Shown piece by piece: positions 106-37,948 of a stretch of DNA of 64,000 nt. The notes beneath the pieces are model-generated. The model was not told the origin of the DNA, searched no databases, and saw nothing but the letters and a program-made list of their open reading frames with translations. The first letter of the stretch is position 1. Every line of letters starts with the position of its first letter. A program made the translations under genes and the position numbers. The stretch covers positions 1 to 64,000 of the IMG/VR virus record IMGVR_UViG_3300044655_000639, one strand, 5' to 3'. The DNA is from a virus.

Positions 106-3100
106 ATGAACCTTACTGAACTACGTAATCAAGCTGCTAAGGATATTCAAGCTGAAAGATCTAAGATAGGATCTTCCTCCTATATTAACAATACAAACAT
201 ACCTTATAATGAGCCCACACTTGCTGATAGAAGATACACTGGTCTTGCTCCATATGGTGAACCTACTAAAGCAGAGAAGCTCTTAGAGGCTAGAAATGAA
301 AAGATAAATAGACTACATGCTCTTACATCTACAAGCTCTGGTGCTCAGCTACAACAAGCTCTATCAGACATTGTAGACCAGCAAGTGTACACAGATGCTA
401 ATGGTAACAAGTACCAAGAGATGTATGGTAAAGATAGTAATGGAAACACTACTATCACTAAGGTACCTTACACAAAAGAAAATGCATATGGTAATGAAGA
501 TACAAGAAATCTCTATATAGATAATACGCTAGAAGGGAATATGAAGTTAGGGTTAGCTCGTAGTGATAAAGGATTCCTAGGACGGTACACTCCTACAGAG
601 GACAGTAAAGGTAAGAAGTATGGATGGACTCCAGGACCTAAAGGTGTAACACCTCAAGATGGTGCCTTAATGGATATCCAACTACCATATAATGTAGCTA
701 CTCAATTCGAGCATGGTGTGCACTCTAACAGAGGACAACTGGCTAATAGAGCTATAGGTCAAGGTCCTGTATCAAAACAAGATATAGCAAACTTCGGAAG
801 TGGTAAGACTGAGTATACAACACAGAATGCTCCTATGTGGAATCAATCTGCTAATACTAATCCAAGACTAGCTCCAAATACTCCTCTACCTAAAGAAATG
901 GATAAACTGCATAAGTATCAAAATGGGTTACAGATAACTGATTCTAACCTAATAGATGCACTACAGTACGGTGTTGGTAGAAAAGCTGCTGGAATAGCAG
1001 ATGCTATTGTGGATGCTGGAGGACAAGTAGCAGTAGCTGGATATGGTATGATGAATCCTGAGATGACTCAAGAGCAAGTACAAAAGAAGATGGCTAAGAC
1101 TATGGGTGGAAACTCTTTCACCAAAGACTACTACAATAAAAATGGGGACTTCATAGGACTAGACAAGTACAAGAAAGCTGCAGAGTATGGATATGATGAT
1201 GCTACTACTCAAGCTGCTATGGCAGACTTCGGTAAAGCCTTTGATAGTGGAAGCCCTGTGGAGATGGCTAAGTCTATAGCACGTAATCTAGATGCTGCTC
1301 CTGAATTTATAGCAGAGAGTGCTGGAGAATTCCTGACTGGACCTATGAGAGCTGCAGGTGTAATCCTTAATACATTCGACTATGCTAATAAGACTCTAGA
1401 GAGAAGACAAGAAGAAACTGGTAAAGCATACACTACCCTAGGAGATAAAGCTCTAGCAGGTCTAACAGGATGGGGACAAGCTATACTGAATAAAGCTGGT
1501 GTAGATGAGATGATCGGTAGAACAAAGATCGTATCTGGTGTAATGGATAAGCTGATCAAGTCTAATAAGCTAACAGATGGGATGGTATTGAATGCTGGCA
1601 AGAGACTAGCAGGGGCACTGACAGTAGCAACTGGTAAAGGACTATATGAAGGTACTGAAGAAGTAGCACAGCAGTTCTTAGACATCGTAGGAGCTAAGCT
1701 TGGGGATGAAAAAGCTAATGAAATCTTCTCTAGTAAGACAGGAAGAGAACTGTTCCAAGCATTCGGAGGAGGGTTTGGGAGTGGTGCTGGAATGCATGTA
1801 GTAACATCCCCTAAAGAAACCATAGGAGCTGTACTGTCTCCTGTAATGGCTACTACTAATAAAGGACTAACAAGCCTAGCAGAAATATCAGCTAATAGAA
1901 CAGTAGCAGATATAGATGCAAGAAAAGCTAAAGAGTACATAGCAAAACAAAACGAAGTGACAGCAGCTGAGAATGCTAAAATAGAAGAGATCAAAGCTCA
2001 AGAGGAAGCTGTCACTCCTATTACTTCTACTACTACAGCAGATACGCTAGATCTAACAAGAGAAGATATATCTACTGATGAGATAAATAGTGCTGCTACA
2101 GATCTGGTAACTAAAACCATACAAGCACAAGAAGCTGGTACTGTATATGAACCTACAGTTAATGAGCAAGCATTCCAAGCTGCATATGGTGAAGCTGTTA
2201 ATGCTAAGTTCACTGAAGTATATGCTGACATAGCTACAAATACAAATACTACTAATGCTGGGCTTACCAAAGCAACACCTAAACAAATGTCAGAAGGCTC
2301 TAGGAAACTAAATGATAATCCAGAACTTGCTGCACAAAATACTGTACTAGACAAACTTAGTACAAAAGTATCTGAGGCTAAAACAGAAGTTGAAAGAACT
2401 AATGCAGAAGTTGCTTATAATTACCACCTCAATAATGTAGTTACTCCACTAATTAACAGTATAAGAGGTTTTGATGATGCAGGTAATCTAATAAGCACTG
2501 TTGAAACTTCTAGCGCAACTACTCCTGCTAAAGGAACTCCGACTATGGCAGTTAGTGATAGAACAAGTGAAACTATTCAACAAGAAATAGAGGAGTTAGG
2601 TACAAGTAGGGATAACACCTATGTAGAGGACCTGCAAAGATATGTTGATAATGGAATGGGCATAGAAGAAGCTAAAAAGAAAGCCCACTCTAATTCGAGA
2701 GAAACATTCAATAAGATAAAAGCACTAGAAGAAGAACTCAAGACTGTTAAGGCTAATGAAGTATCTCAAGATAAAGCATTCAAAGAACAAGGAATATCTG
2801 ATGATGATCTGACAATCTACAAGAATGCTGGTATAGCAAATATCATATCTGTAGACGATAGAGCTAAAGGGTTAGGTATTGAAATAGATACTGATAAGGT
2901 ACAATTAAAAGAAGGAAGCACTAAGAAGAATAAGCTGTATGATCCTATGAAAGCTGATAATGCAACTCTAGATAGTATCATAGAAAGTGGTTTCAATAAA
3001 GATACGATAGATGCATTAGATGTAAGCAATAAAGGATCCACATTTCTGCAAAGACTATCTAAACACTTCACATTCGGCAAAGAAAAGCAAGTAGAACTGA

Positions 3101-6100
3101 CTAAGATAGCAAAAGACATCACAGCTAAACTATCAAATCCTACTGTTAAAGAAGCTATGACTAAAGTATCTGGTACTGATACATCTACAGCACAAGCACT
3201 AAGAGCTATCACAGTGGCTGTAAGTGCTGTACGATCAGCTACTACAGCAGAATTCGATATCACACATGGTGAAGGTGCTAAACATAATGGATATGCTCCT
3301 CAACTGGGGCTAGCAGAGCAAGTAGGTAAAGCATACTTAAACTCATTCGGAGCTAAGCTAAAGGGTAAGGACTCTGAGAGTATGGCTGCAAAGCATAAAG
3401 AGATAGGTATGAATGTACTGAAACTAGCAGAAGCTGCTGGATATGTAGAGAGTGCTTCTAATATGTCATTCCAGGTCCATAATAGAGTAACACCTAAAGG
3501 AGATAGAGTATCCACAAGTAGAGATGGTGGTAAATCAGATATTCCTGTAGGACAGAAGTCAGGTACATTCGCTAATACTGGGTATAGAGTAAAAGGTGAC
3601 AAAGACTCTTCTCGTATACCTGAGAATGCTGTAGGTTCTACTCTATCAAGTCTGGATAAGATATTCAATCCTATCAATGAAGAGATGGTTATGAGTACTC
3701 CATCTGATGTAGTAACATCTAAGAATCCTATCTCAAAAGAGCACCAGCAGATCATAAAAGATATGCAAGGTATGAAGTTCAGAATAAAAGCTCCATTCAT
3801 AGAATTACTCAAAAGTATAAAGGCTTCTCTAGGTGATAATATGGAGGCAAATCTATCTACGAATCCTGATATTAAAAAGCTATTAGGACTGGATAAGAAG
3901 TCTACGCTACTGACAAAGATGGGAGACTCTGGTAAGAGTATCCAAAGAAAAGGTAATCTACTAAAGCTACTGGAGAACCTGGATGAACTAGAAGCCATGA
4001 GTAAAGATGGATTCCACTTCACATTAGATACTGCTATCAATGAACGTGTACATATAATGCAAACACTTCTAGAGTTCCAAGGTGATAAGTTCATGTCAAG
4101 ACAGATCCTAACAGGAGGAGAATACACTACTGGTAACAAGTATGAGTATGATATGCTGATCAATGACATAAAAGACAATCTACCAAAGGGTATGGAATAT
4201 AATGATGATAGATTGACTGCTGCTGTAAAAGACTTCAATAAAGGAGTATTCAATGGTGATCAAGCTGTGTTCAACATAGTAGCTACTATGAAAGCACTAG
4301 GCTTCGACTCTCCATTCAAGATGCTGAATGTCCTGCAAGGTATGGCTGATGTACAGAAAGCTGATGGGTACAAAGTGACTACTGAGTATGTTCCTAGTGC
4401 AGATGCTACTGCAAGTGGTGTAATGAATACTCTAATGAATCTAATCGGTATGCCTTCAATACAGAACATGTTCAATAACTGGATAAGTGGAGGTAAGTTC
4501 GATCCATATACTGCACTACTAGACGCTGTAGATCTAGATAAAGAAGGTTCTTTCAGTGAGAGAGCATTAGCTACAAACAATGTATTCAATATACTATATA
4601 AAGGATCTAATCGTGACATTACAAAGTATCCTATCATCAAATGGATATATGGTCAATGGAAAGGCAATACTGAAAGAGAGATGGCTGATAGTATAGCAGT
4701 AGACCTGCTAAAAGCTGCTACTACAGGAAATCAAGATGCACTCAATGAAGTCAATAGAATCCTAGCTACAGCTAATAAAGAAGGGTATGAGGATATACTA
4801 GTAGGCGATATAGCTGTACGATCAGGAGATGCTCATCTAATAAAAGAAGCAGAAGAACTAGAAGCTACTATCAAAGATGGTAACTATGTAATATTTGACA
4901 CTGAGACTACAGATAGTACTCAAGGTAAAAATAACCATATCATACAAGCATCTATTCGCATCTTCAAGAATGGCGTAGAACAAGAGCCTGTAATGATACA
5001 TGTGCCACTAGAAGACGGTATCACCATAAGCCAAGGTGCATTCGAGATCCACAAGGTATCAGAAGAGATTCTTAAAAGTAAGATAAAGAATGGTGAAACA
5101 AGAAAAGGTCAGATAGCTAAGATACGTAGAGCAATAGGTTCTCTGCCTATAATTGCACATAGTGCCTCTTTCGATACTTCAGCTCTTCAATTAGGAGACG
5201 GTAAGATTATCACTAATAAAGTGCATGACACTATGGCACTAGCTAAGATTGCTCAATATGAGAAAGCAGCCCAAGATGGTGGAAAGACTACAGGTGGTGT
5301 TATAAATATAAAGGCTCTTTCTAAGACATATGGTATAGAGTATGATGATAAAGCCTCTCATGATGCTGCATATGATACAGCTCAAACAAAGCTACTAATA
5401 CAACCAATGCTAGATAGATTCAATAGCGTAAAGAGTAAGCTAAAAGTAGAAGGTGCCAATAATATCAGTAACCTAACAGAAGAAGATAAAAAAGTAATAA
5501 CAGACTACTACCAAACCAACATAAGTTCTCTATATGTTCCAGCACTAGATAAAGCATTCCCTGGTGTAAAAGAGTATAGTACTGCCATGAAGACACTGTA
5601 TGGTATCCTACAAACAAGTAAAGTATGGGATGGTAGAATCAAGAGTGCTATGGGTGTAATGCAAGGCACTGGTAATAAGATGAGTGTACGTAAGCTAAAG
5701 AATGTTGTACAGGATGTAGACGGTGATCTAACACAAATAGACAAAGAGATGGATAATGAAACATCATTCCTGGTAAACCTACAGCACTCAGTAGATGCTG
5801 CGCTACTACTACTATCTATGCAGAAAGTATTGAATAATCCTAATCTAACAGAAGTTAGTGTAATGACTGTACATGATGACTTCAGAGCACAACCTAAAGT
5901 ACTACGTGAGATAATGGCAGAGTATAATAAGCTAACAAGAGAAGTAGCAGTAAAGTATGACTTCCTCAGTGTAGCAATGGATGAAGTACAAGAAGTGATA
6001 GAGAAGCTGGAAGCAAAAGAGAACAAGACTCCAGAAGAGATAAAAACTCTATCAGTAGTAAAAGCTCAATATAACTCATTCAAGAATGATAGACAATTCC

Positions 6101-9100
6101 CTGGTACTGATGGAAAGCTAACAGTAAATGAAATGCTAGAAGCTAAGAAGAAATTCTTAGAAGGAGACATAGGTCTAAAAGTACTAGGAGATAAAACTGT
6201 AGATCTAAGTGGAGTAGATACTTCTGTATCTAAGCATAAAGCCAAAGAGAAAGCAGCACAGACTCTATCAGAGAAACTACATGAAGCACTGAACAATGGT
6301 GCAGATGTAGCAACAGCTCTACAATCTGTGGTAAATACTATAAAGGTGAGTGAAGAGTATGGTGCTCTAAAGCAGAAGGTTCTAGATGCTCTATCAGGTA
6401 AGACTATAACATTCAGTAGAAGTGATCAAGGCTTTACTGGAGGTAATGGTAAAGTAACAATACCTACTGGAAAGATAGGAGAAGAAAGATTCGTAGCTTC
6501 TGCACAGAGAGCTACAGCAATGACTCCTGAAGGGCTAATAGAGACATTAGCACATGAGATAGATCATGCCTATAAGCTAAGCTATATAGAGAGTGATACA
6601 GGGCTTAAATCACCTGAGGTGAAGTATCTAAATAAAGTGGTAGAAAAGCTACGGAGAGAGCGAGATAAAGGTAATCTAACAACACTATCATCAGAAACCC
6701 AAGCACGTATAAAGTATATAGTAGAACATAAAGATGCTGGGAGAGCTGTGAGTGAGCTGGTATCAGTACTAGAGAATGAAATCTCTGTATCCAATGAGAT
6801 TAAAGGAATAGTACAAGCACCTACACTTCTAGAAGTGCTATCTAACCTCATCAAGAGAGTGAAGGAATGGGTTAAAGCAATGACTCAAGATGAGAGAAAA
6901 TCTCGTATAAGTGAAGCTATGAGTAATGATGATACTACTATGATGGCACTAGAAGCATCTCTAATAGAAGTAAGTATTAACTCTAAAGCATATGGTGTAG
7001 GAGATGGTAAAGCTATGGCTAGAGCTTCAGCTAAGTCAGATACTGATACGGTAAATGATCCATACTTCAATGAGAATCTAAATCCGTTAGTAGCAGCTAA
7101 TAAAGCTATGGCTAAGTCTAATAGATTCCTATCAGACTGGATGATCATATGGGGTGATCTAATAGCTCAAGAAGTAGGACCTATAGCTGGTAAGTTCCAT
7201 AATAAGATGAAAGAGAAATATCCTGTGTATGTTCAGACAATGAGTATGATACGATCAGGATTCTATGAGAGTGAGTGGATGCAAAAGATGCATACAAATC
7301 TAGGAGTAGATGGATCAAGATCTGAAGTAATCAATAAGCTGCAGACTCTACGTCATGAGATAGGGCAACAGACAGGAGCACTAGCTAGAAAGATGGCAGA
7401 GCTTAAAAGAAGACAAGAAGAAGTCTATACAAAGAAAGAGCGTAATACATTATATGCTATGTTCAAGACTGGTATAGGGCATCTATCAACAGAAGAGCTA
7501 AAGACAGTACATGATGGTATCTTCAATGGAAGTATGACATATAAAGAAGCTATAGCTATAGTATCTGATGGTATGACTGCTGATCAAATAAGACAGTTAG
7601 ATAATGTTGCTAACTACGTAAATACTGGTAATACTACTGAGACAGCAAGAGAAGTGAATACACTATTCATAGAAGGTGTATCAGAAGAGAAAGGTGGAGC
7701 ATACGTAGCATTGAAAGCATTATCTCAAATACCTGGATCACTAGAACTGCTAAAGGGCATGGATAAAGATATGCTGAAAGAGATGCTGTCTATTGCAAAT
7801 GCTAACAAACATCTAAGTGAAGTAATCAATAGAGCAAAGACAGACTACACAGGTAAGAAGATCACTAATGAAGCTGGTTACTATAGTGACTATGATGTAA
7901 CGTATGCTATGGACATCTTCAATGAGAATCATGAGTATGTACTGATCACTGCAGAAGATCTAAAAAGAAGCATCTACTCAGAAACCAATGGATGGTTTGT
8001 AGTAAAGGGTGTAGAGAATGGAGTAGGTCTGGTAGGAAGAAAAAGTTATTCTCCTACTAATAGACCAGGTGTTGGACTAGAAGTAACAAGATACCAGAAT
8101 GGTGTATACCTAGATCCAGAACAATCAGCTAAGATGGATAACATAATAGGAAAGTTAAAATCTAAAGAAGCAGTATCAGCATATCTAGATGCAAACAGTA
8201 TCACAATGGATAATGGTAAATACAGATTTGTAATAGATGAGAAGACTAAAAGAGAGAAACTTGATCTAGTAGAGGATTCAGCTGAGTCTCTATATAGAAC
8301 ATATATCAGAAACTTCGAACTAGTACATGCTCAAAGTATTAAGGATATAGTGCTCAATGAAGGAATTCAACATATCAATACAGAAAAGGATATGCTAATC
8401 CTAAATACTATTCTAGAAACTAACAATAAAGAGAGAGGTCTACTAAGTAGAACTAAAGTACTACCATTCCTAAAAGTAAACTATGATATGAAGATGACAT
8501 ATGATGAAATGGCTAAGAAATACCCATACATTGCAATGTATTTTAGAACTCCTAATAATCTATCAACATATCAAGAGTTCAACCAGAACATAACATTTGT
8601 AAAGAAAGGTGAAGGTGATGTGCTGTTAGGATACAAGCCAGGAACATTATTCGCAGATAGTGATAATAGATCCCTAGCAAAATGGGAATCTATGTATAAG
8701 AAACTAATAGTACTATCAAAGCAAAAGATGATTGTAACAAACCCTAAGAAGCTTGCTGTAGATGCTGCTGCTAACATGGGGATCCTATCTATGTATGATA
8801 TGGACCCAATGTCTATATTCAGAGGAATGAAAGATGGATTCACAGAGTACCATAAGTTAACAGCTAAAAGAAACACTCTAGTAGATGTGGAACTTAAAGC
8901 AAGAATAGCCTTCAATAGTAAAGATACTGCAAAGTATGAAGTACTGATGAAAAGACGTGATAAGATAAATGCTCAGCTAAAAGAGATGAAGTTCTATGAT
9001 GCATGGAAATCAGGTTTCATACAGTCATACAGTACAGATCTAGTACTTAAAGAGTTTGATACTATCAGTGGTATCCAAAGAGATATAGATATATTCATAG

Positions 9101-9792
9101 ATAAATATACTATTGATGAGAAAGGTGATCCAAATGCATTGTATAAAGCTATAAAGTGGTGGCAAGAAGCTGGAGGACCAAAAGCTAATGTAGAAACATT
9201 CTTCAGTGCTGTTAGTAAAGCAAGTGCATTAAAAGGGACAATGTTAAGTACTGAGTTAAAAGAGCTGAGTGAGAGATTAAAGAATAAGAAGAATGAAGAG
9301 AGTGTGGCAAGGTATGTCAGCGAGTTCCTAGGAAGTCCCTCATCTGAAGTGGTAAGCTATGGTAGTGCTACTATGGTGTTGATAGATGCCCTATCTAAGT
9401 ATCTTCTAGCAAATCACCTAATGACTCAAGAGAATCCTAGAAAGGGTAAAGTAGGTGCAAGACCTATGTATACTAAAGAAGAAGCATACGCTATAGCTCA
9501 AGAGACATTCATAGACTATAGAGATAATCTTCCAAAAGAAGTACAGACACTAAGTGACTATGGTGTATTACTGTTCCCAGCATACTGGATGCGAGTACAG
9601 AAGATACTAGCGGGACTAGCATTGTACCACCCTATAAGCTCGCTAGGAGGATTTGCAATAGAAGCTTCACTAGGTATTGAGAGCATGAGTGCAATGAACT
9701 CTAACCTGTTTACAAAGGGGGCAAATGAAGGGCTTATAAACCTAAACCCAGCTGAGGTGATAGATGCAGGTTCTGTAATGGTATTGCTCTAA
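106..9792 (+). CDS. Virion-encapsidated RNA polymerase (N4 gp50-like), with inserted DEDDh exonuclease and HExxH motif
   Basis: 3228 aa with no Cys seen. T7-superfamily motif A DATASG (4402), motif B RDITK..IYG (4612-4653), motif C VHDDF (5872). Last late gene, converging on the middle genes as in N4. Confidence 0.93.
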   Translation: MNLTELRNQAAKDIQAERSKIGSSSYINNTNIPYNEPTLADRRYTGLAPYGEPTKAEKLLEARNEKINRLHALTSTSSGAQLQQALSDIVDQQVYTDANGNKYQEMYGKDSNGNTTITKVPYTKENAYGNEDTRNLYIDNTLEGNMKLGLARSDKGFLGRYTPTEDSKGKKYGWTPGPKGVTPQDGALMDIQLPYNVATQFEHGVHSNRGQLANRAIGQGPVSKQDIANFGSGKTEYTTQNAPMWNQSANTNPRLAPNTPLPKEMDKLHKYQNGLQITDSNLIDALQYGVGRKAAGIADAIVDAGGQVAVAGYGMMNPEMTQEQVQKKMAKTMGGNSFTKDYYNKNGDFIGLDKYKKAAEYGYDDATTQAAMADFGKAFDSGSPVEMAKSIARNLDAAPEFIAESAGEFLTGPMRAAGVILNTFDYANKTLERRQEETGKAYTTLGDKALAGLTGWGQAILNKAGVDEMIGRTKIVSGVMDKLIKSNKLTDGMVLNAGKRLAGALTVATGKGLYEGTEEVAQQFLDIVGAKLGDEKANEIFSSKTGRELFQAFGGGFGSGAGMHVVTSPKETIGAVLSPVMATTNKGLTSLAEISANRTVADIDARKAKEYIAKQNEVTAAENAKIEEIKAQEEAVTPITSTTTADTLDLTREDISTDEINSAATDLVTKTIQAQEAGTVYEPTVNEQAFQAAYGEAVNAKFTEVYADIATNTNTTNAGLTKATPKQMSEGSRKLNDNPELAAQNTVLDKLSTKVSEAKTEVERTNAEVAYNYHLNNVVTPLINSIRGFDDAGNLISTVETSSATTPAKGTPTMAVSDRTSETIQQEIEELGTSRDNTYVEDLQRYVDNGMGIEEAKKKAHSNSRETFNKIKALEEELKTVKANEVSQDKAFKEQGISDDDLTIYKNAGIANIISVDDRAKGLGIEIDTDKVQLKEGSTKKNKLYDPMKADNATLDSIIESGFNKDTIDALDVSNKGSTFLQRLSKHFTFGKEKQVELTKIAKDITAKLSNPTVKEAMTKVSGTDTSTAQALRAITVAVSAVRSATTAEFDITHGEGAKHNGYAPQLGLAEQVGKAYLNSFGAKLKGKDSESMAAKHKEIGMNVLKLAEAAGYVESASNMSFQVHNRVTPKGDRVSTSRDGGKSDIPVGQKSGTFANTGYRVKGDKDSSRIPENAVGSTLSSLDKIFNPINEEMVMSTPSDVVTSKNPISKEHQQIIKDMQGMKFRIKAPFIELLKSIKASLGDNMEANLSTNPDIKKLLGLDKKSTLLTKMGDSGKSIQRKGNLLKLLENLDELEAMSKDGFHFTLDTAINERVHIMQTLLEFQGDKFMSRQILTGGEYTTGNKYEYDMLINDIKDNLPKGMEYNDDRLTAAVKDFNKGVFNGDQAVFNIVATMKALGFDSPFKMLNVLQGMADVQKADGYKVTTEYVPSADATASGVMNTLMNLIGMPSIQNMFNNWISGGKFDPYTALLDAVDLDKEGSFSERALATNNVFNILYKGSNRDITKYPIIKWIYGQWKGNTEREMADSIAVDLLKAATTGNQDALNEVNRILATANKEGYEDILVGDIAVRSGDAHLIKEAEELEATIKDGNYVIFDTETTDSTQGKNNHIIQASIRIFKNGVEQEPVMIHVPLEDGITISQGAFEIHKVSEEILKSKIKNGETRKGQIAKIRRAIGSLPIIAHSASFDTSALQLGDGKIITNKVHDTMALAKIAQYEKAAQDGGKTTGGVINIKALSKTYGIEYDDKASHDAAYDTAQTKLLIQPMLDRFNSVKSKLKVEGANNISNLTEEDKKVITDYYQTNISSLYVPALDKAFPGVKEYSTAMKTLYGILQTSKVWDGRIKSAMGVMQGTGNKMSVRKLKNVVQDVDGDLTQIDKEMDNETSFLVNLQHSVDAALLLLSMQKVLNNPNLTEVSVMTVHDDFRAQPKVLREIMAEYNKLTREVAVKYDFLSVAMDEVQEVIEKLEAKENKTPEEIKTLSVVKAQYNSFKNDRQFPGTDGKLTVNEMLEAKKKFLEGDIGLKVLGDKTVDLSGVDTSVSKHKAKEKAAQTLSEKLHEALNNGADVATALQSVVNTIKVSEEYGALKQKVLDALSGKTITFSRSDQGFTGGNGKVTIPTGKIGEERFVASAQRATAMTPEGLIETLAHEIDHAYKLSYIESDTGLKSPEVKYLNKVVEKLRRERDKGNLTTLSSETQARIKYIVEHKDAGRAVSELVSVLENEISVSNEIKGIVQAPTLLEVLSNLIKRVKEWVKAMTQDERKSRISEAMSNDDTTMMALEASLIEVSINSKAYGVGDGKAMARASAKSDTDTVNDPYFNENLNPLVAANKAMAKSNRFLSDWMIIWGDLIAQEVGPIAGKFHNKMKEKYPVYVQTMSMIRSGFYESEWMQKMHTNLGVDGSRSEVINKLQTLRHEIGQQTGALARKMAELKRRQEEVYTKKERNTLYAMFKTGIGHLSTEELKTVHDGIFNGSMTYKEAIAIVSDGMTADQIRQLDNVANYVNTGNTTETAREVNTLFIEGVSEEKGGAYVALKALSQIPGSLELLKGMDKDMLKEMLSIANANKHLSEVINRAKTDYTGKKITNEAGYYSDYDVTYAMDIFNENHEYVLITAEDLKRSIYSETNGWFVVKGVENGVGLVGRKSYSPTNRPGVGLEVTRYQNGVYLDPEQSAKMDNIIGKLKSKEAVSAYLDANSITMDNGKYRFVIDEKTKREKLDLVEDSAESLYRTYIRNFELVHAQSIKDIVLNEGIQHINTEKDMLILNTILETNNKERGLLSRTKVLPFLKVNYDMKMTYDEMAKKYPYIAMYFRTPNNLSTYQEFNQNITFVKKGEGDVLLGYKPGTLFADSDNRSLAKWESMYKKLIVLSKQKMIVTNPKKLAVDAAANMGILSMYDMDPMSIFRGMKDGFTEYHKLTAKRNTLVDVELKARIAFNSKDTAKYEVLMKRRDKINAQLKEMKFYDAWKSGFIQSYSTDLVLKEFDTISGIQRDIDIFIDKYTIDEKGDPNALYKAIKWWQEAGGPKANVETFFSAVSKASALKGTMLSTELKELSERLKNKKNEESVARYVSEFLGSPSSEVVSYGSATMVLIDALSKYLLANHLMTQENPRKGKVGARPMYTKEEAYAIAQETFIDYRDNLPKEVQTLSDYGVLLFPAYWMRVQKILAGLALYHPISSLGGFAIEASLGIESMSAMNSNLFTKGANEGLINLNPAEVIDAGSVMVLL

Positions 9793-34133: not shown

Positions 34134-34222
34134 GATGTATCCTTTTGCATTTGTTTAGCTTGATCCGTATCTGCTTCTGTAACAGATACAACTACTCCAT
34201 TGATAACATAATAATAATCCAC
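34127..34222 (-). CDS. Early micro-ORF, 31 aa (GTG start)
   Basis: AAGGAG RBS just downstream of a conserved hairpin. Confidence 0.4.
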   Translation of the reverse strand: MDYYYVINGVVVSVTEADTDQAKQMQKDTSC

Positions 34223-34238
34223 GATATTCTCCTTATAT

Positions 34239-34257
34239 GGTGACTCTATGGTACACC
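34239..34257 (-). promoter_or_regulatory. TCTATG-loop hairpin, copy 1
   Basis: GGTGAC-TCTATG-GT(A)CACC. Confidence 0.55.
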
Positions 34258-34295
34258 TAATACAATGCAGCTGAGGAGACTGCACTGGGTTAGAC

Positions 34296-34550
34296 TTACC
34301 AGCGTTTACCTACTTTAGCCTTTTCGGCTTTAGTATTCGCACTGTTCATAAGAGATGTATACTTATGTTCAAATAGAGCTTGCTGTAGCTCAACTTGGAG
34401 TTCTTCCGTCCACTGGTCTCCCAATGCTACTGATAGGACTGGTTCCCATTCCATCTGCCAACTACGTCTACCGTACTCATCTGCTTGCTTTGCAATAAGT
34501 GGATCAAGTCCACTAGGTCCCATATCAACTGCTAATTCACGAATATCCAT
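34296..34550 (-). CDS. Early hypothetical protein
   Basis: AAGGAG RBS. Confidence 0.65.
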   Translation of the reverse strand: MDIRELAVDMGPSGLDPLIAKQADEYGRRSWQMEWEPVLSVALGDQWTEELQVELQQALFEHKYTSLMNSANTKAEKAKVGKRW

Positions 34551-34789
34551 ATTATTCTCCTTTAGATTAATAGGCTTACACCTATCATTTCAAAGAACCG
34601 AGTGGATACGAGGGAAAAACAGGTAAGACCAATGGTCGTAAAATACCTGCTAAATTCCTTTCATAAAATGTATAACACACACACAAATCAATGTCTACTA
34701 GAACGGATATAATCCCTATGCTCAGCATTACCTGTTAGATTGTAGTAAGACATCATAATACCCTCTACAAAGAGAGAGTACTAGATATC

Positions 34790-36604
34790 TTAGTCTTCAT
34801 AAGACAACGGCATACCTGCCATAATGTCATCTCTACTAAGACTACCTTTAGTGATACGAAACTGTAGTGATGGATCAATCTGAGTAAGAATATCATGAAG
34901 TAAATTCATGTCATTAACATCAGCCATAACAGCCTTAACAAGACTGAATAACTTCTCTTCATTACCTTCTTCAATACCATATGAATCATGAATCATACTG
35001 ATAGCAAAGTCAGCTCTACGGCATACTTCTCTAGCTATGAACGACTCTACAGAACGTACAATATTAGGAGCTAAACTTCTGTTATACTTAGTATTATTAG
35101 GAACTTTAGCTTCAATAGATACACTATGAGTCTTACCCATTTGAAGATCAGCATAGTATCCTTTATGTGTAACAGTCTCCATTACATCATATGATACAAC
35201 AAAGCCATCAGGCATTGTCCACTGATAGTGTGATTGGTTCTCATTGTTGAATCTATAGATAAGATTCATAAGCTTAAGTGCTGCAGGAGCAAGCTCTTCT
35301 AATGCAGTCATAATGAACTTATATAGACCAGCTTTAAGCTCTTCTGGAACTAAGTCTCTGATAGTATGTGTACCAGCATAACGTACATCATCCTTGATAG
35401 TATCAGTATTATCCAATAGCTGTTTCTCCATACCACCATAGAATGCAATCATTACTAAGTGTTTAACTGTATCCTTAACAAAGATACTACTACCAGTATG
35501 CTCATTAAGTCTTCTAGCTAATTCAATACGTAAGTCTTCCAACTCAGTATCTGAGAGTCCTACTCTACTACCTGTCAATGGATCACTACCAAGTAATGCA
35601 TATACTTGTAGATTATTATTTCTACAGTCATACTTCTTAATACTGTTGCCATTGATTGTAAGCATACGCTTCTGAAATGAATCACCTTGTGGATTAAGGT
35701 ATGGACTACATGAATGCATACGTCCTGAACTATTCTCAAATGCATATGGCACATGGAATGTCTCATCTTGAAATCTATGAATATCTTCTACTAACTTGTT
35801 CCACTCTTTAGCCATGAATACACCATCTTTATCAAACCATTTGTCTTGTAATTTATACTCTTCTAATAAAGGAACTAGTTCTTCATTAGGTATAAGCTTA
35901 AATGGTACTGACTGTTGGTGATTCAATGCAGATAATGCTGCTTCACCTTGTGCTGTAAGACCACTAAGCATAGTCTTACCTGATAAATACGTTCCTCCTT
36001 TATTCTCTGCAGTATGTGCTACTAATCTATAAGCTGCTCCTCCACTACGTACTGTAGAAGCTTTAAGATAGAGTCCTTCTTCTTGTAAGAATGCTTGTAG
36101 TTTAATACTAGGCTCAATGATATTATGTGTATGAGCTTTGTCTGTCTTAATGATCTTATTTTGTAGAAAACCAGTATCTTTAAGGAACTGAATAATGTTA
36201 GCTCCAAGTGTAGCTTTAGTGCTGTGACTAGCACGTACTCTACCTGTACTTAATGTTATTACTTTGTTACAAAGCTGTTGACCTAGCTTGTAACCTGCAA
36301 TCCTGTGTTCGAGGTAACTATGGCTGATTACAAGATCCTCAATGAGGATTGTAAACACTTTAGCCCACTGAATATTGTGTTGAGACAACAGCTCATGATG
36401 GTACTCTTTATGTTCTATCTCACTGTTATTAATAGCTATTAAGTACTCACTCCAATTACTGCCTAATGTCTCTGCATTAAGCTTAGAAACACTGTCTTTA
36501 ATTGCTAGTCTAAGACCAGCTAAGCTATAACTAGCTTCGTATGACTGCTGCTTAGCAGCAACTGCTTGGATTTGTGCAAATGTAAGTGTTGATAATGTTT
36601 TCAT
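34790..36604 (-). CDS. Single-chain T7-like RNA polymerase (N4 RNAPII equivalent, unsplit)
   Basis: SSGRMH..LNPQG, motif A YDCRNNNLQ, motif B KDTVK..FYGG, LAPNIVRS, motif C IHDSY; start revised to MKTLST (GAGGAG RBS). Confidence 0.88.
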   Translation of the reverse strand: MKTLSTLTFAQIQAVAAKQQSYEASYSLAGLRLAIKDSVSKLNAETLGSNWSEYLIAINNSEIEHKEYHHELLSQHNIQWAKVFTILIEDLVISHSYLEHRIAGYKLGQQLCNKVITLSTGRVRASHSTKATLGANIIQFLKDTGFLQNKIIKTDKAHTHNIIEPSIKLQAFLQEEGLYLKASTVRSGGAAYRLVAHTAENKGGTYLSGKTMLSGLTAQGEAALSALNHQQSVPFKLIPNEELVPLLEEYKLQDKWFDKDGVFMAKEWNKLVEDIHRFQDETFHVPYAFENSSGRMHSCSPYLNPQGDSFQKRMLTINGNSIKKYDCRNNNLQVYALLGSDPLTGSRVGLSDTELEDLRIELARRLNEHTGSSIFVKDTVKHLVMIAFYGGMEKQLLDNTDTIKDDVRYAGTHTIRDLVPEELKAGLYKFIMTALEELAPAALKLMNLIYRFNNENQSHYQWTMPDGFVVSYDVMETVTHKGYYADLQMGKTHSVSIEAKVPNNTKYNRSLAPNIVRSVESFIAREVCRRADFAISMIHDSYGIEEGNEEKLFSLVKAVMADVNDMNLLHDILTQIDPSLQFRITKGSLSRDDIMAGMPLSYED

Positions 36605-36622
36605 AATATTCTCCTCAGAATA

Positions 36623-36640
36623 ATACACTCTATGGTGTAT
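36623..36640 (-). promoter_or_regulatory. TCTATG-loop hairpin, copy 2
   Basis: ATACAC-TCTATG-GTGTAT. Confidence 0.6.
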
Positions 36641-36702
36641 GTTAATGTTATGGTTAGACTATTCACTGTAGATTATTCAGGACTTATTGACATTGCCTAC
36701 AT

Positions 36703-36720
36703 GAGTACTCTATGGTACTC
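36703..36720 (-). promoter_or_regulatory. TCTATG-loop hairpin, copy 3
   Basis: GAGTAC-TCTATG-GTACTC. Confidence 0.6.
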
Positions 36721-36872
36721 TCTCGTGCTTGCTCGTCTTGTACTTCTAGGTGCTGCCTATGGTGGCAATCCCTTTAATAGAGATGTTCAAGATGAGACTC
36801 CTTGTATAAGATTAGTGGTTAACTATGTAACGCACCATCCTACCTACTAGTTAGAGTAGGTAGTGTGATATG

Positions 36873-37280
36873 TTATGCTCTAGCCTTAGCTTCTCTATTA
36901 GCTTTGAGTTGAGCTGCTCTGGCATCATTCTCCTTCTTGAGATCTGAACCTAATGATCCAAGTCCTATTGAAGTACACATTGATTCATGATTAGTCTTAG
37001 CTACTTTAACTGCTCCTCCAAGCTTAGCTAGTCTCTCAGCGTCTTTCTCCCATTCATCTGCTAAAGCATCTCCTTGCTCAGCTAGCATAAGAGATGTCTT
37101 TACTCCCATTTGGTAGGCTACTGATGTTGTATCTCTAGCTGCTAAGAATGCATGGGTTGATACTGTCTTGGTAGTATTGGTCATCTTAATAATCAAGGCT
37201 TTCTTCTGTCTTGACTCTAGGTATTTGAACACACCAAATGTGAATGCTGCTAATAATACGATGATGATAAGTGTAAACAT
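36873..37280 (-). CDS. Early membrane-anchored protein
   Basis: Start revised to MFTLII (AGGAG RBS); N-terminal TM. Confidence 0.65.
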   Translation of the reverse strand: MFTLIIIVLLAAFTFGVFKYLESRQKKALIIKMTNTTKTVSTHAFLAARDTTSVAYQMGVKTSLMLAEQGDALADEWEKDAERLAKLGGAVKVAKTNHESMCTSIGLGSLGSDLKKENDARAAQLKANREAKARA

Positions 37281-37312
37281 GATGAACTCCTGCCATATAG
37301 GACTTACTTGTA

Positions 37313-37328
37313 TATACTCTATGGTATA
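37313..37328 (-). promoter_or_regulatory. TCTATG-loop hairpin, copy 4
   Basis: TATAC-TCTATG-GTATA. Confidence 0.55.
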
Positions 37329-37384
37329 GATTGTAGACGTTGGTATGAACATTATCAGTGACCATGTAAAAGAGCTAGGCTCTA

Positions 37385-37408
37385 TACTACCATCCGAAGA
37401 TAGTAGTA
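37385..37408 (-). terminator. C(UUCG)G hairpin
   Basis: - strand CTACTATC-TTCG-GATGGTAG with one G-U pair. Confidence 0.5.
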
Positions 37409-37413
37409 AGAAC

Positions 37414-37518
37414 TCAGTGCATTACTATTGAATAGCTCTTAGGAGTCATAATGAATCCAACAATAGTAAGGAGAAGTGTAGCATTATCTACAAGTGTAGA
37501 GATGATGATGTGTGACAT
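37414..37518 (-). CDS. First early micro-ORF, 34 aa, hydrophobic
   Basis: AAAGGA RBS; MSHIIISTLVDNATLLLTIVGFIMTPKSYSIVMH. Confidence 0.45.
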   Translation of the reverse strand: MSHIIISTLVDNATLLLTIVGFIMTPKSYSIVMH

Positions 37519-37538
37519 GGTAGATCCTTTGTGTAGTA

Positions 37539-37556
37539 CATAGCTCTATGACTATG
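37539..37556 (-). promoter_or_regulatory. TCTATG-loop hairpin, copy 5
   Basis: CATAGC-TCTATG-ACTATG (T-G closing pair on the - strand). Confidence 0.5.
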
Positions 37557-37948
37557 ATAGTGAAGAAAGAGGCTCCACTGGATTATAGGGGCGGATACCC
37601 TCCAACTGAATATCCCTCCACCTATCTCTGCACCCTTACAAAATATTTTCAAAACTGTGTAATCCAAATCTTAATTATTTCTTAGTAGCAGAGTAGCGCA
37701 TGAAGTGGAGAATAAGGAGGGATTGTTGTATATGTTGAAGTAGATGTTTGCTGTCACTGCTACTGCGTAGGGCTAAATAAATCTAACCCCCCAGCGCAGT
37801 CGTTAACCATTCAGATTCCTGATCGTATCATAGATCGTTATGTATTGTCAAACATAACGCTATAGTGCTCTACTATGATATGAAATATACTATAATTTGC
37901 ATAACAGTAATAACATATGGTATGATTCGGTAAAGATAAGGAGTATTA

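Follow-up and report, generated by a model that had tools for sequence, protein, structure and literature searches.

In coliphage N4, the early promoters P1, P2 and P3 are read by the virion RNA polymerase gp50. Their hairpins carry a 3-nt G-R-A loop and a G:C closing pair, structures explain recognition through the loop, and wrist and specificity-loop segments of gp50 read the hairpin (PMC4496689). In Pseudomonas phage LUZ7, ONT-cappable-seq mapped nine early transcription start sites at promoters whose hairpins have a 3-nt loop; transcription starts at a G that is 13-14 nt away from the centre of the hairpin, and tandem promoters are among them (PMC9163698). The +1 position is fixed relative to the loop in both phages (PMC4496689, PMC9163698), and the +1 C on the template strand is 11 nt from the loop centre in N4 and 13-14 nt in LUZ7. 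The N4 promoters P1, P2 and P3 end 52, 13 and 41 nt before gp1, gp2 and the RNAPII subunit gene gp15, respectively, and the top-strand sequences of their loops, TTC/TCC, were verified in L013. N4 relies on the extrusion of very stable GNA mini-hairpins. At the RNA level, protein-binding hairpins such as lambda boxB and the coat-protein operators typically combine an invariant loop with freely varying stems. Such boxB and operator elements occur in one or two copies per genome and have known partners, namely N, coat protein and gp43.

The window analysed here comprises 64,000 nucleotides from the 74,282-bp genome of an uncultured, N4-related lake phage which is known only from lake metagenomes. 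Megablast against phage records gave no match for this phage, and a scan of genome contigs found no relative. The gene order is syntenic with that of N4: terminase, portal, major head protein and virion RNA polymerase are encoded on one strand, whereas the early genes, RNAPII and the replication genes are located on the opposite strand. The early and the terminase ends abut at about 37.56-37.95 kb. Two of the gene products resemble RNA polymerases.

106..9792, (+) strand: giant virion RNA polymerase homologue, 3228 aa; phrog_2206 'virion RNA polymerase', E 1e-15, over the C-terminal domain
34790..36604, (-) strand: T7-like single-chain RNA polymerase (RNAPII-like), 604 aa; Pfam RNA_pol, E 1e-9; phrog_2051 and phrog_414 'RNA polymerase'

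The giant protein is the presumed reader of the hairpins described below. For its ORF, phmmer returned no direct PDB match, and there was no direct match to Pfam RNA_pol. A profile built from homologues of the giant protein matched the N4 gp50 polymerase domain (residues 1354-1699, p about 4e-10), and an RNase_T exonuclease insert was found at aa 1595-1761. The wrist and specificity-loop segments of gp50 were not alignable in the giant protein, which therefore leaves room for a different specificity. The second protein is a fused T7-like RNAPII with 17 homologues at 43-95% identity; its gene is an early gene preceded by copies 3 and 2 of the hairpin family.

The first-pass annotation had listed five hairpins, beginning at 34239, 36623, 36703, 37313 and 37539, and all of them were confirmed as intergenic, co-oriented elements of one strand. 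They share the + strand loop TCTATG and occupy non-coding spacers in the leftward early gene block, all within its first 3.4 kb. As the early genes are encoded on the - strand, the sense-strand loop is CATAGA.

34239..34257, (-) strand: hairpin copy 1; + strand GGTGAC TCTATG GTACACC, 6 bp, one bulged A in the 3' arm; sense strand GGTG(T)AC CATAGA GTCACC, bulged T
36623..36640, (-) strand: hairpin copy 2; + strand ATACAC TCTATG GTGTAT, 6 bp, perfect; sense strand ATACAC CATAGA GTGTAT
36703..36720, (-) strand: hairpin copy 3; + strand GAGTAC TCTATG GTACTC, 6 bp, perfect; sense strand GAGTAC CATAGA GTACTC
37313..37328, (-) strand: hairpin copy 4; + strand TATAC TCTATG GTATA, 5 bp; sense strand TATAC CATAGA GTATA
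37539..37556, (-) strand: hairpin copy 5; + strand CATAGC TCTATG ACTATG; sense strand CATAGT CATAGA GCTATG

The stems of 5-7 bp are AT-rich and pair on the template strand, with one bulge in copy 1. In copy 5, the first element inside the early end, a C/A mismatch at the closing position of the + strand corresponds to a T.G pair on the sense strand. The template-strand loop TCTATG can also be read as a T.G-closed tetraloop CTAN. None of the five template loops has the 3-nt sequence 5'-G-R-A-3' that is closed by a G:C pair and has its central purine at -11. The claim that four copies lie shortly upstream of a ribosome binding site (RBS) was borne out, since copies 1, 2, 4 and 5 precede RBS-supported starts: 16 nt separate the end of copy 1 from a GTG at 34222, 18 nt copy 2 from the RNAPII ATG at 36604, 33 nt copy 4 from the orfB ATG at 37280, and 21 nt copy 5 from the ATG of orfA at 37518. 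Copy 3 is arranged in tandem with copy 2, 80 nt upstream of it, and has no RBS behind it. The surrounding early region contains the following further elements.

37414..37518, (-) strand: orfA, 34 aa, hydrophobic; first early gene, behind copy 5; conserved in the relatives L001 and L002
36873..37280, (-) strand: orfB, 135 aa; early gene behind copy 4; hydrophobic N-terminus on inspection of the translation; no family
36840..36863, (-) strand: 9-bp terminator-like hairpin right after the orfB stop, without T-run; upstream of copies 3 and 2
34615..34649, (-) strand: intrinsic terminator CAGGTA..TACCTG with a T5 run; behind RNAPII and a 22-aa ORF
34296..34550, (-) strand: 84-aa ORF with its own upstream signal, a TTGAAA box (34588-34593) and a hairpin ATAGG TGTAAG CCTAT (34570-34585)
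34266..34284, (-) strand: terminator-like hairpin TGCAG..CTGCA with TTGTATT behind it; between the 84-aa ORF and copy 1, which starts 9 nt further on

The TTGAAA box of the 84-aa ORF is conserved, and the upstream signal of this ORF is unlike the five hairpins. Both terminator-like hairpins vary in relatives: L001 and L002 carry a different paired stem in place of the one at 36840..36863, and the one at 34266..34284 covaries in L003 (CCAG/CTGG). Two hairpin sites, that of copies 3 and 2 and that of copy 1, follow a terminator-like hairpin. Such a layout of terminator and then promoter would require re-initiation.

The hexamer TCTATG alone is not enriched (76 matches versus 75.7 expected). The 10-mer ACTCTATGGT occurs four times in the whole 74,282-bp genome, always on the + strand and between 34243 and 37316. 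Among perfect hairpins of at least 5 bp in the whole genome, TCTATG was the only 6-nt loop seen three times, and no loop recurred three times in 40 dinucleotide shuffles. No other hairpin family recurs in the early region, and the one formed by the five copies is real and non-random far beyond chance. Covariation was assessed with ten distinct instances from the phage studied and three close relatives. These ten non-identical instances have ten different stems with 49 out of 50 positions paired, whereas cross-pairings reached 2.6 out of 5; none of 20,000 permutations matched the observed stem pairing. Information content in the alignment of the instances is limited to the loop and the two closing pairs.

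Orthologous hairpins differ at most stem positions between phages whose neighbouring genes are 90% identical. For copy 2, the orthologous stems are ATACAG/CTGTAT in L001, AATAGC/ACTATT in L002 and GTACAT/ATGTGC in L003, which results in four different stems next to an unchanged loop and a 100% conserved downstream RBS. The stem of copy 5 covaries as well (ACAGT/GCTGT with loop CTTAGA in L001, CATAGC/GCTATG in L002), while that of copy 1 is identical in L001, there with loop CGTAGA, and in L003. The earlier statement that the stems differ yet stay paired was thus strongly supported, and the hexaloop described as invariant is so inside the genome but not in relatives, as the two loops of L001 show. 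Because all ten stems are distinct, nearly all positions are paired, and the copy 2 stems diverge beside a conserved RBS, it is structure rather than sequence that is under selection in the stems.

The distribution of the copies also bears on a role as module boundaries. According to this explanation, the hairpins would be mobile or recombinogenic marks that move with gene cassettes and not polymerase recognition sites themselves, for which the promoter-early stem-loops of T4-type phages offer a comparison. Copy 3 is found only in the genome studied and is absent from L001, L002 and L003; the strain of run X13 diverges after 36699. L003 has an additional copy ahead of a different gene. Copy 4 belongs to a conserved stretch of about 90 nt, which L001 and L002 match at 100% identity, and the flanked orfB coding sequence is a swapped, different allele. 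These observations fit mobile marks, but the strict loop, strand and position before the RBS exceed the needs of a recombination scar. Furthermore, promoters would equally be expected to move with cassettes, so that the explanation does not compete with a promoter function. We regard it as very improbable.

The scan of related genomes suggested with the first-pass annotation recovered the motif in L001-L003 and in the 67.7-kb relative G001, in which the copies likewise do not extend beyond the first 3.4 kb of the early block and are co-oriented with the genes, but not before RNAPII in more distant relatives. Hairpins with a CATAGA loop were absent before RNAPII in L004, L005 and L007 (58-60% RNAPII identity) and in L010-L012 (30-37%), and relatives at 58-63% RNAPII identity lacked the motif at this position. 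Judged by these sequence comparisons, the hairpin family is clade-specific.

Several other identities were considered and rejected. Sigma-70 promoter-like sites, for which -35 and -10 hexamers with a spacing of 16-18 nt were required, numbered 22 versus 20 expected from shuffles, with no constant register relative to the motif. TTAACA and TATTCT flank the hairpin of copy 2, which makes up their 17-nt spacer, a register absent from the other copies, and TTGACA-18-TATGGT at copy 3 is on the opposite strand and not repeated elsewhere. A shared TAGGTGTAAG motif precedes the 84-aa ORF and, in L007, RNAPII, and it is also contained in the 5' arm of copy 1. It was rejected as a real promoter, as it has only two exact occurrences in the genome and is not found at copies 2-5. 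None of the five hairpins is followed by the T-run of an intrinsic terminator, and their stems are AT-rich. Stems of 5-7 bp are probably far too short for RNase III sites.

The placement of the five hairpins is N4-like. As in N4, inverted repeats with stems of 5-7 bp lie co-oriented at the genome end that is injected first, immediately ahead of early genes, that of RNAPII among them, in positions such as those of P1-P3. A conserved loop is combined with a freely varying stem, and a gp50 homologue is encoded. In contrast to N4, the template-strand loop comprises 6 nt, either as TCTATG or as a T.G pair and CTAN, instead of the 3-nt G-R-A, there are five copies instead of three, the stems are AT-rich and weak, no +1 C is conserved at a fixed distance, and the gp50 segments that contact the N4 hairpin have no alignable counterpart. 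LUZ7 also has several early hairpin promoters, a tandem pair before a key early gene, and short leaders, but its loops have 3 nt instead of 6, and its G starts are mapped.

On balance, we lean slightly towards the five hairpins being early promoters read by the injected virion RNA polymerase, as a larger-loop variant of the known hairpin promoters. We infer that they act at the DNA level and are read by the virion polymerase, and likewise the position of the transcription start. After injection, the inverted repeats would be extruded or exposed as single-stranded hairpins, by analogy with N4. The co-injected giant polymerase would recognise the template-strand (+) hairpin through its shape, the two loop-proximal pairs and the loop 5'-TCTATG-3', or possibly the T.G-closed tetraloop. 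RNA synthesis would begin a few nucleotides 3' of the stem and give short leaders, whose first base would be at the Shine-Dalgarno sequence or slightly ahead of it. Each hairpin site would then serve one early unit, with copy 5 for orfA, copy 4 for orfB, the tandem copies 3 and 2 for RNAPII, and copy 1 for the next small genes. That no consistent sigma-70 promoter accompanies the copies counts in favour of such promoters.

Alternatively, the hairpins might be promoters for another polymerase, either the phage RNAPII or the host RNA polymerase with a phage factor. For the middle promoters of LUZ7, which form hairpins with loops of 3-4 nt, RNAPII is the apparent reader (PMC9163698). However, copy 2 heads the RNAPII gene, and because RNAPII must exist before it can act, the signal in front of this gene has to be read by a polymerase present at injection. 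Moreover, the family is restricted to the first 3.4 kb and not spread over the 25-kb replication block, and a sigma-70 pattern is absent. A different reader is therefore improbable in our view.

The idea of a 6-nt-loop promoter class for the virion polymerase held in part. It agrees with the N4-like order, the virion polymerase homologue, the RNAPII, the covariation and the P1-P3-like positions, whereas the +1 is not conserved and the loop may be a tetraloop. A template C 7 nt from the stem, noted before in copies 1-3, is indeed present there, but not in copies 4 and 5 or in the copy 2 orthologues of L002 and L003, where the proposed +1 G is 9 nt from the stem, i.e. shifted by 2 nt. No base downstream of the stem is conserved across the instances. 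This counts against promoters, as do the weak AT-rich DNA hairpins, A/C mismatches on the template strand, an RNA contig running through copy 1, and the absence of the motif before RNAPII at 58-63% identity.

The same observations bear on the main rival, an RNA-level leader element, in which the hairpins would be part of the mRNA directly 5' of the Shine-Dalgarno sequence. There they would be the operator of an early translational repressor, protect the 5' end or mark a site of processing, or form a boxB-like loading site for terminator read-through. A contig of a lake metatranscriptome with a depth of 44 spans from 34550 through copy 1, and the 84-aa ORF is the source of the most abundant RNA of the region. 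Thus, at least copy 1 is transcribed as RNA. Another RNA contig has its end at 34250, the first loop base of copy 1 and not downstream of the stem. Contig cover is zero in the 34669-34835 bin between RNAPII and the 84-aa ORF, just upstream of the terminator at 34615..34649; as the RNA runs are assembled contigs with cover close to nil over copies 2-5, uncovered parts are not evidence. An RNA element would also explain the lack of a conserved +1 and the distance of 3-10 nt between hairpin end and Shine-Dalgarno sequence in most instances, although the latter is not diagnostic, since N4 P2 sits 13 nt from a start codon.

Folding and wobble pairs add to this comparison. As RNA, the hairpins fold with -1.8 to -7.3 kcal/mol, which exceeds the stability of the weak DNA folds (-1.2 to -4.0 kcal/mol). 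G.T wobbles occur on both strands: the two T.G (U.G) pairs of the sense strand, in copy 5 and in copy 2 of L003, are A/C mismatches in the template hairpin, whereas copy 2 of L002 has C/A on the sense strand and a wobble on the template strand only. The alternative of RNA operators, originally derived from the U-G of copy 5, thus gains from the two sense-strand wobbles and the RNA contig through copy 1, and loses by the one wobble on the template strand. Protein-binding RNA hairpins, too, keep their loop constant while the stems vary, and the lambda/P22 boxB (nut) and translational operators share the 5-6 bp stem, the specificity loop of 5-6 nt and the association with early transcription units. 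They differ in that here five copies occur, no candidate partner was found, and the copies are downstream of terminator-like hairpins, not upstream. Domain and family searches revealed no early protein with a recognisable RNA-binding domain, Rfam gave no match at the gathering threshold and none at E <= 5, and copy 3 lacks an RBS. Since no promoter-like conserved sequence lies upstream of any copy, the transcripts would need a distant upstream origin and would have to pass the terminator-like hairpins. Taken together, we consider an RNA leader element rather unlikely, though less so than a different polymerase.

Concerning promoters read by the virion polymerase, a further proposal is that a deeply divergent N4-like lineage has re-coded the promoter of its injected polymerase from a GNA mini-hairpin to a weak AT-rich hexaloop or a T.G-closed CTAN tetraloop. 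It would be read mainly via the loop and an R-Y second pair by a virion polymerase with a DEDDh exonuclease insert in the polymerase domain, while the stems drift fast. To us, the chances for and against this proposal appear even. The experimentally mapped virion polymerase promoters that we found, those of N4 and LUZ7, all have a 3-nt loop. If true, a larger-loop family together with a polymerase whose promoter-contacting segments are unalignable would show the range over which hairpin recognition can drift. It would provide a second, orthogonal pair of polymerase and single-stranded DNA promoter as well as a case from nature in which a single-subunit RNA polymerase has co-evolved with a structured promoter of single-stranded DNA. 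For annotation, the hairpins define the early transcription units and likely the physical left end of the genomes of an uncultured freshwater phage clade.

The genes between 10.7 and 37.5 kb are carried on the - strand, and the five elements therefore read stem, CATAGA, stem on the sense strand. All five hairpins were found where the first-pass annotation had placed them. As it had described, four copies shortly precede RBS-supported start codons, and the U-G closing pair of copy 5 was confirmed as T.G on the sense strand.

37539, - strand sense: copy 5, 6-bp stem closed by T.G; ends 21 nt 5' of the RBS-supported start codon of a 34-aa ORF (orfA)
37313, - strand sense: copy 4, perfect 5-bp stem; ends 33 nt 5' of the RBS-supported start codon of a 135-aa ORF (orfB)
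36703, - strand sense: copy 3, perfect 6-bp stem; in tandem with copy 2, 80 nt upstream of it
36623, - strand sense: copy 2, perfect 6-bp stem; ends 18 nt 5' of the RBS-supported start codon of the 604-aa RNAPII
34239, - strand sense: copy 1, 6-bp stem with one bulged base; ends 16 nt 5' of the RBS-supported start codon of a 31-aa ORF

Copy 2 is abutted by a second perfect 6-bp hairpin, TATTCT GAGG AGAATA (36607-36622, - strand), whose loop is the RNAPII Shine-Dalgarno sequence GAGG and which is 100% conserved in three close relatives.

The TCTATG hexamer is not enriched in the window (76 observed vs 75.7 expected). The 74,282-bp genome has four copies of the 10-mer ACTCTATGGT, and all of them are + strand matches located between 34243 and 37316. 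When perfect hairpins of ≥5 bp with 6-nt loops were compared, TCTATG was the sole loop seen three times, and 0 of 40 dinucleotide-preserving shuffles gave any loop that often.

Three close relatives (L001, with genome G001, L002 and L003) were found via the RNAPII protein at 89-94% amino-acid identity. At the orthologous site before RNAPII both the loop and the RBS region, TATTCTGAGGAGAATATTATG, are identical, and the stem is ATACAC/GTGTAT in this genome, ATACAG/CTGTAT in L001, AATAGC/ACTATT in L002 and GTACAT/ATGTGC in L003. Copy 5 covaries from T-A to C-G in L001 and from T.G to C-G in L002, and L003 has an extra copy upstream of a different gene (ATACAAT CATAGA ATTGTAT). The ten non-identical instances have ten different stems, paired at 49/50 stem positions vs 2.6/5 for cross-paired arms, a level reached in 0 of 20,000 permutations; the stems thus differ yet stay paired, as had been claimed. 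Only the loop and the two pairs nearest to it carry information content; the second pair has a purine 5' and a pyrimidine 3' in all instances. The hexaloop described as invariant is so in the five copies of this genome; in relatives its position 2 varies (CGTAGA, CTTAGA). No conserved positions flank the aligned instances upstream or downstream, and the template C noted 7 nt from the stem in copies 1-3 is not kept across the family.

In G001 (67.7 kb) co-oriented copies again occur only in the same early stretch, with one opposite-strand match outside it, as expected by chance. The motif scan suggested earlier was thus positive at 89-94% RNAPII identity and negative further out, with no CATAGA-loop hairpin before RNAPII in relatives at 58-63% and 30-37%. 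Judged from these genomes, the hairpin family is specific to a narrow clade. Within 36873-37330, L001 and L002 carry a different allele of orfB, while its first codons and the 90 nt surrounding copy 4 match at 100%; to go by these alleles, this regulatory block coincides with a mosaic junction. That the hairpins are purely module-boundary elements is a minor reading and very improbable.

The 3228-aa ORF at 106-9792 has a C-terminal domain matching the PHROG 'virion RNA polymerase' (E 1e-15). A profile built from its homologues of 2000-3500 aa matches the N4 gp50 polymerase domain colinearly, at residues 1354-1699 (24 bits, p ~4e-10) and then 2002-2243; a direct PDB search and Pfam RNA_pol gave no match. 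An RNase_T/DEDDh exonuclease domain (aa 1595-1761, window 4888-5388, Pfam E 3.5e-8) is inserted within the polymerase region, and a homologue without this segment (P0046) skips profile positions 559-778. RNAPII, the 604-aa ORF, belongs to the T7-like RNA polymerases and cannot itself be the first to read the signal before its own gene. DNA polymerase, primase and ribonucleotide reductase are encoded on the - strand; the + strand carries, from 37949 on, terminase, portal, major head protein and the giant polymerase in that order. By these assignments the gene order is that of N4, with the two ends of the N4 map meeting at 37.56-37.95 kb, so that copy 5 comes first within the early end, the one injected first. 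The segment 37640-37800, which separates the early and terminase ends, is hypervariable between strains, has C-rich runs on both sides and is where contigs from runs X4 and X13 break; it is likely the physical genome terminus. The phage is uncultured and present in lake-water metagenomes from many studies.

Between the units lie a terminator-like 9-bp hairpin 3' of the orfB stop (36840-36863; L001 and L002 have another stem there, also paired), a true intrinsic terminator with T5 3' of RNAPII (34615-34649), and a terminator-like hairpin TGCAG/CTGCA (34266-34284) followed by TTGTATT 9 nt before copy 1, which covaries to CCAG/CTGG in L003. Thus, the CATAGA hairpins stand where transcription would have to restart. 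The exception is the unit of an 84-aa ORF, without a CATAGA hairpin, whose TTGAAA box (34588-34593) is kept even in distant relatives (L005 and L006) and suggests a host-type promoter. Sigma-70-like sites were no commoner than in shuffles and kept no constant register with the hairpins.

The ~240-nt spacer between RNAPII and the 84-aa ORF (34551-34790, - strand) is shared with L001 and L003 at almost 100% identity, and its core CTAACAGGTAATGCTG(A/G)GCAT is kept even in L004-L006 (58-63% RNAPII identity). Within it are a hairpin, a 22-aa ORF and the intrinsic terminator; Rfam gave no match, and the spacer is a candidate for a structured RNA or a leader. Between orfA and copy 4, a single hairpin AGAGC CTA GCTCT (37371-37383, - strand; 5 bp, 3-nt loop) followed by TTTT covaries in L002 (AGAGT TTA ACTCT); it represents a small terminator or else a 3-nt-loop hairpin in the style of N4.

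RNA data consisted of contigs, which give no start sites, from two metatranscriptome runs of one lake sample covering parts of the stretch. Depth was 44 and 111 for the 84-aa ORF, 2-4 for RNAPII and nearly nil for copies 2-5. One contig is continuous from 34550 across copy 1, so RNA containing this hairpin exists, arising at least from read-through out of the strong unit that precedes it. The 84-aa ORF yields a discrete abundant RNA, with contigs beginning at ~34550, its ATG. The other run has an RNA 3' end, marked by an adapter junction, at position 34289, which is 7 nt past the stop of this ORF and ahead of the TGCAG/CTGCA hairpin (34266-34284); the next contig starts with the first base of the copy 1 loop (34250). 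At 37944 (+ strand) an adapter junction in both runs marks a sharp RNA 5' end directly after GGAG; the first gene running rightward, on the terminase side, has its ATG 5 nt further on (37949). This RNA end could be a start site or cleavage between the Shine-Dalgarno sequence and the start codon.

The placement of the hairpins follows the logic of N4, including one copy directly upstream of RNAPII, and N4 P2 shows that promoters of this kind can sit right next to a start codon.

N4 hairpin promoters located in the N4 record (name; position; stem, loop, stem; distance)
P1; 90-102; GTTGC TTC GCAAC; ends 52 nt before gp1
P2; 557-573; AAGAAGC TCC GCTTCTT; ends 13 nt before gp2
P3; 4546-4562; AAGCTGC TCC GCAGCTT; ends 41 nt before gp15 (RNAPII subunit)

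LUZ7 has nine early starts with a 3-nt loop, a strong tandem pair, and a start G 13-14 nt from the hairpin centre (PMC9163698). In contrast to N4, the loop here has 6 nt and is not G-R-A, and the stems are weak, folding as DNA at -1.2 to -4.0 kcal/mol, and rich in AT; no fixed +1 like that of N4 and LUZ7 shows in the alignment. The 6-nt loop holds as sequence, but it may be a T.G-closed CTAN tetraloop on the template strand, since in a fold with DNA parameters a T.G wobble forms the closing pair and CTAT remains as the loop, and the fourth tetraloop base is the position that varies in relatives.

The first-pass annotation had proposed either promoters or RNA operators. An element acting in the mRNA leader would account for the tight hairpin-SD spacing, for U.G pairs on the sense strand and for the lack of a conserved +1. 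It requires a promoter further upstream that was not seen, and transcription running through the terminator-like hairpins; one orthologue has its wobble on the template strand instead. We consider it rather unlikely. On balance, we lean towards the CATAGA hairpins being promoters, because this would best explain, all together, why they are restricted to the injected end, why they are placed as in N4, why one copy precedes RNAPII, why hairpins follow terminator-like elements and why there is no other candidate signal. That they are read by another polymerase is a minor and improbable alternative. The hairpin family is one more variant of a known theme, not a new category.
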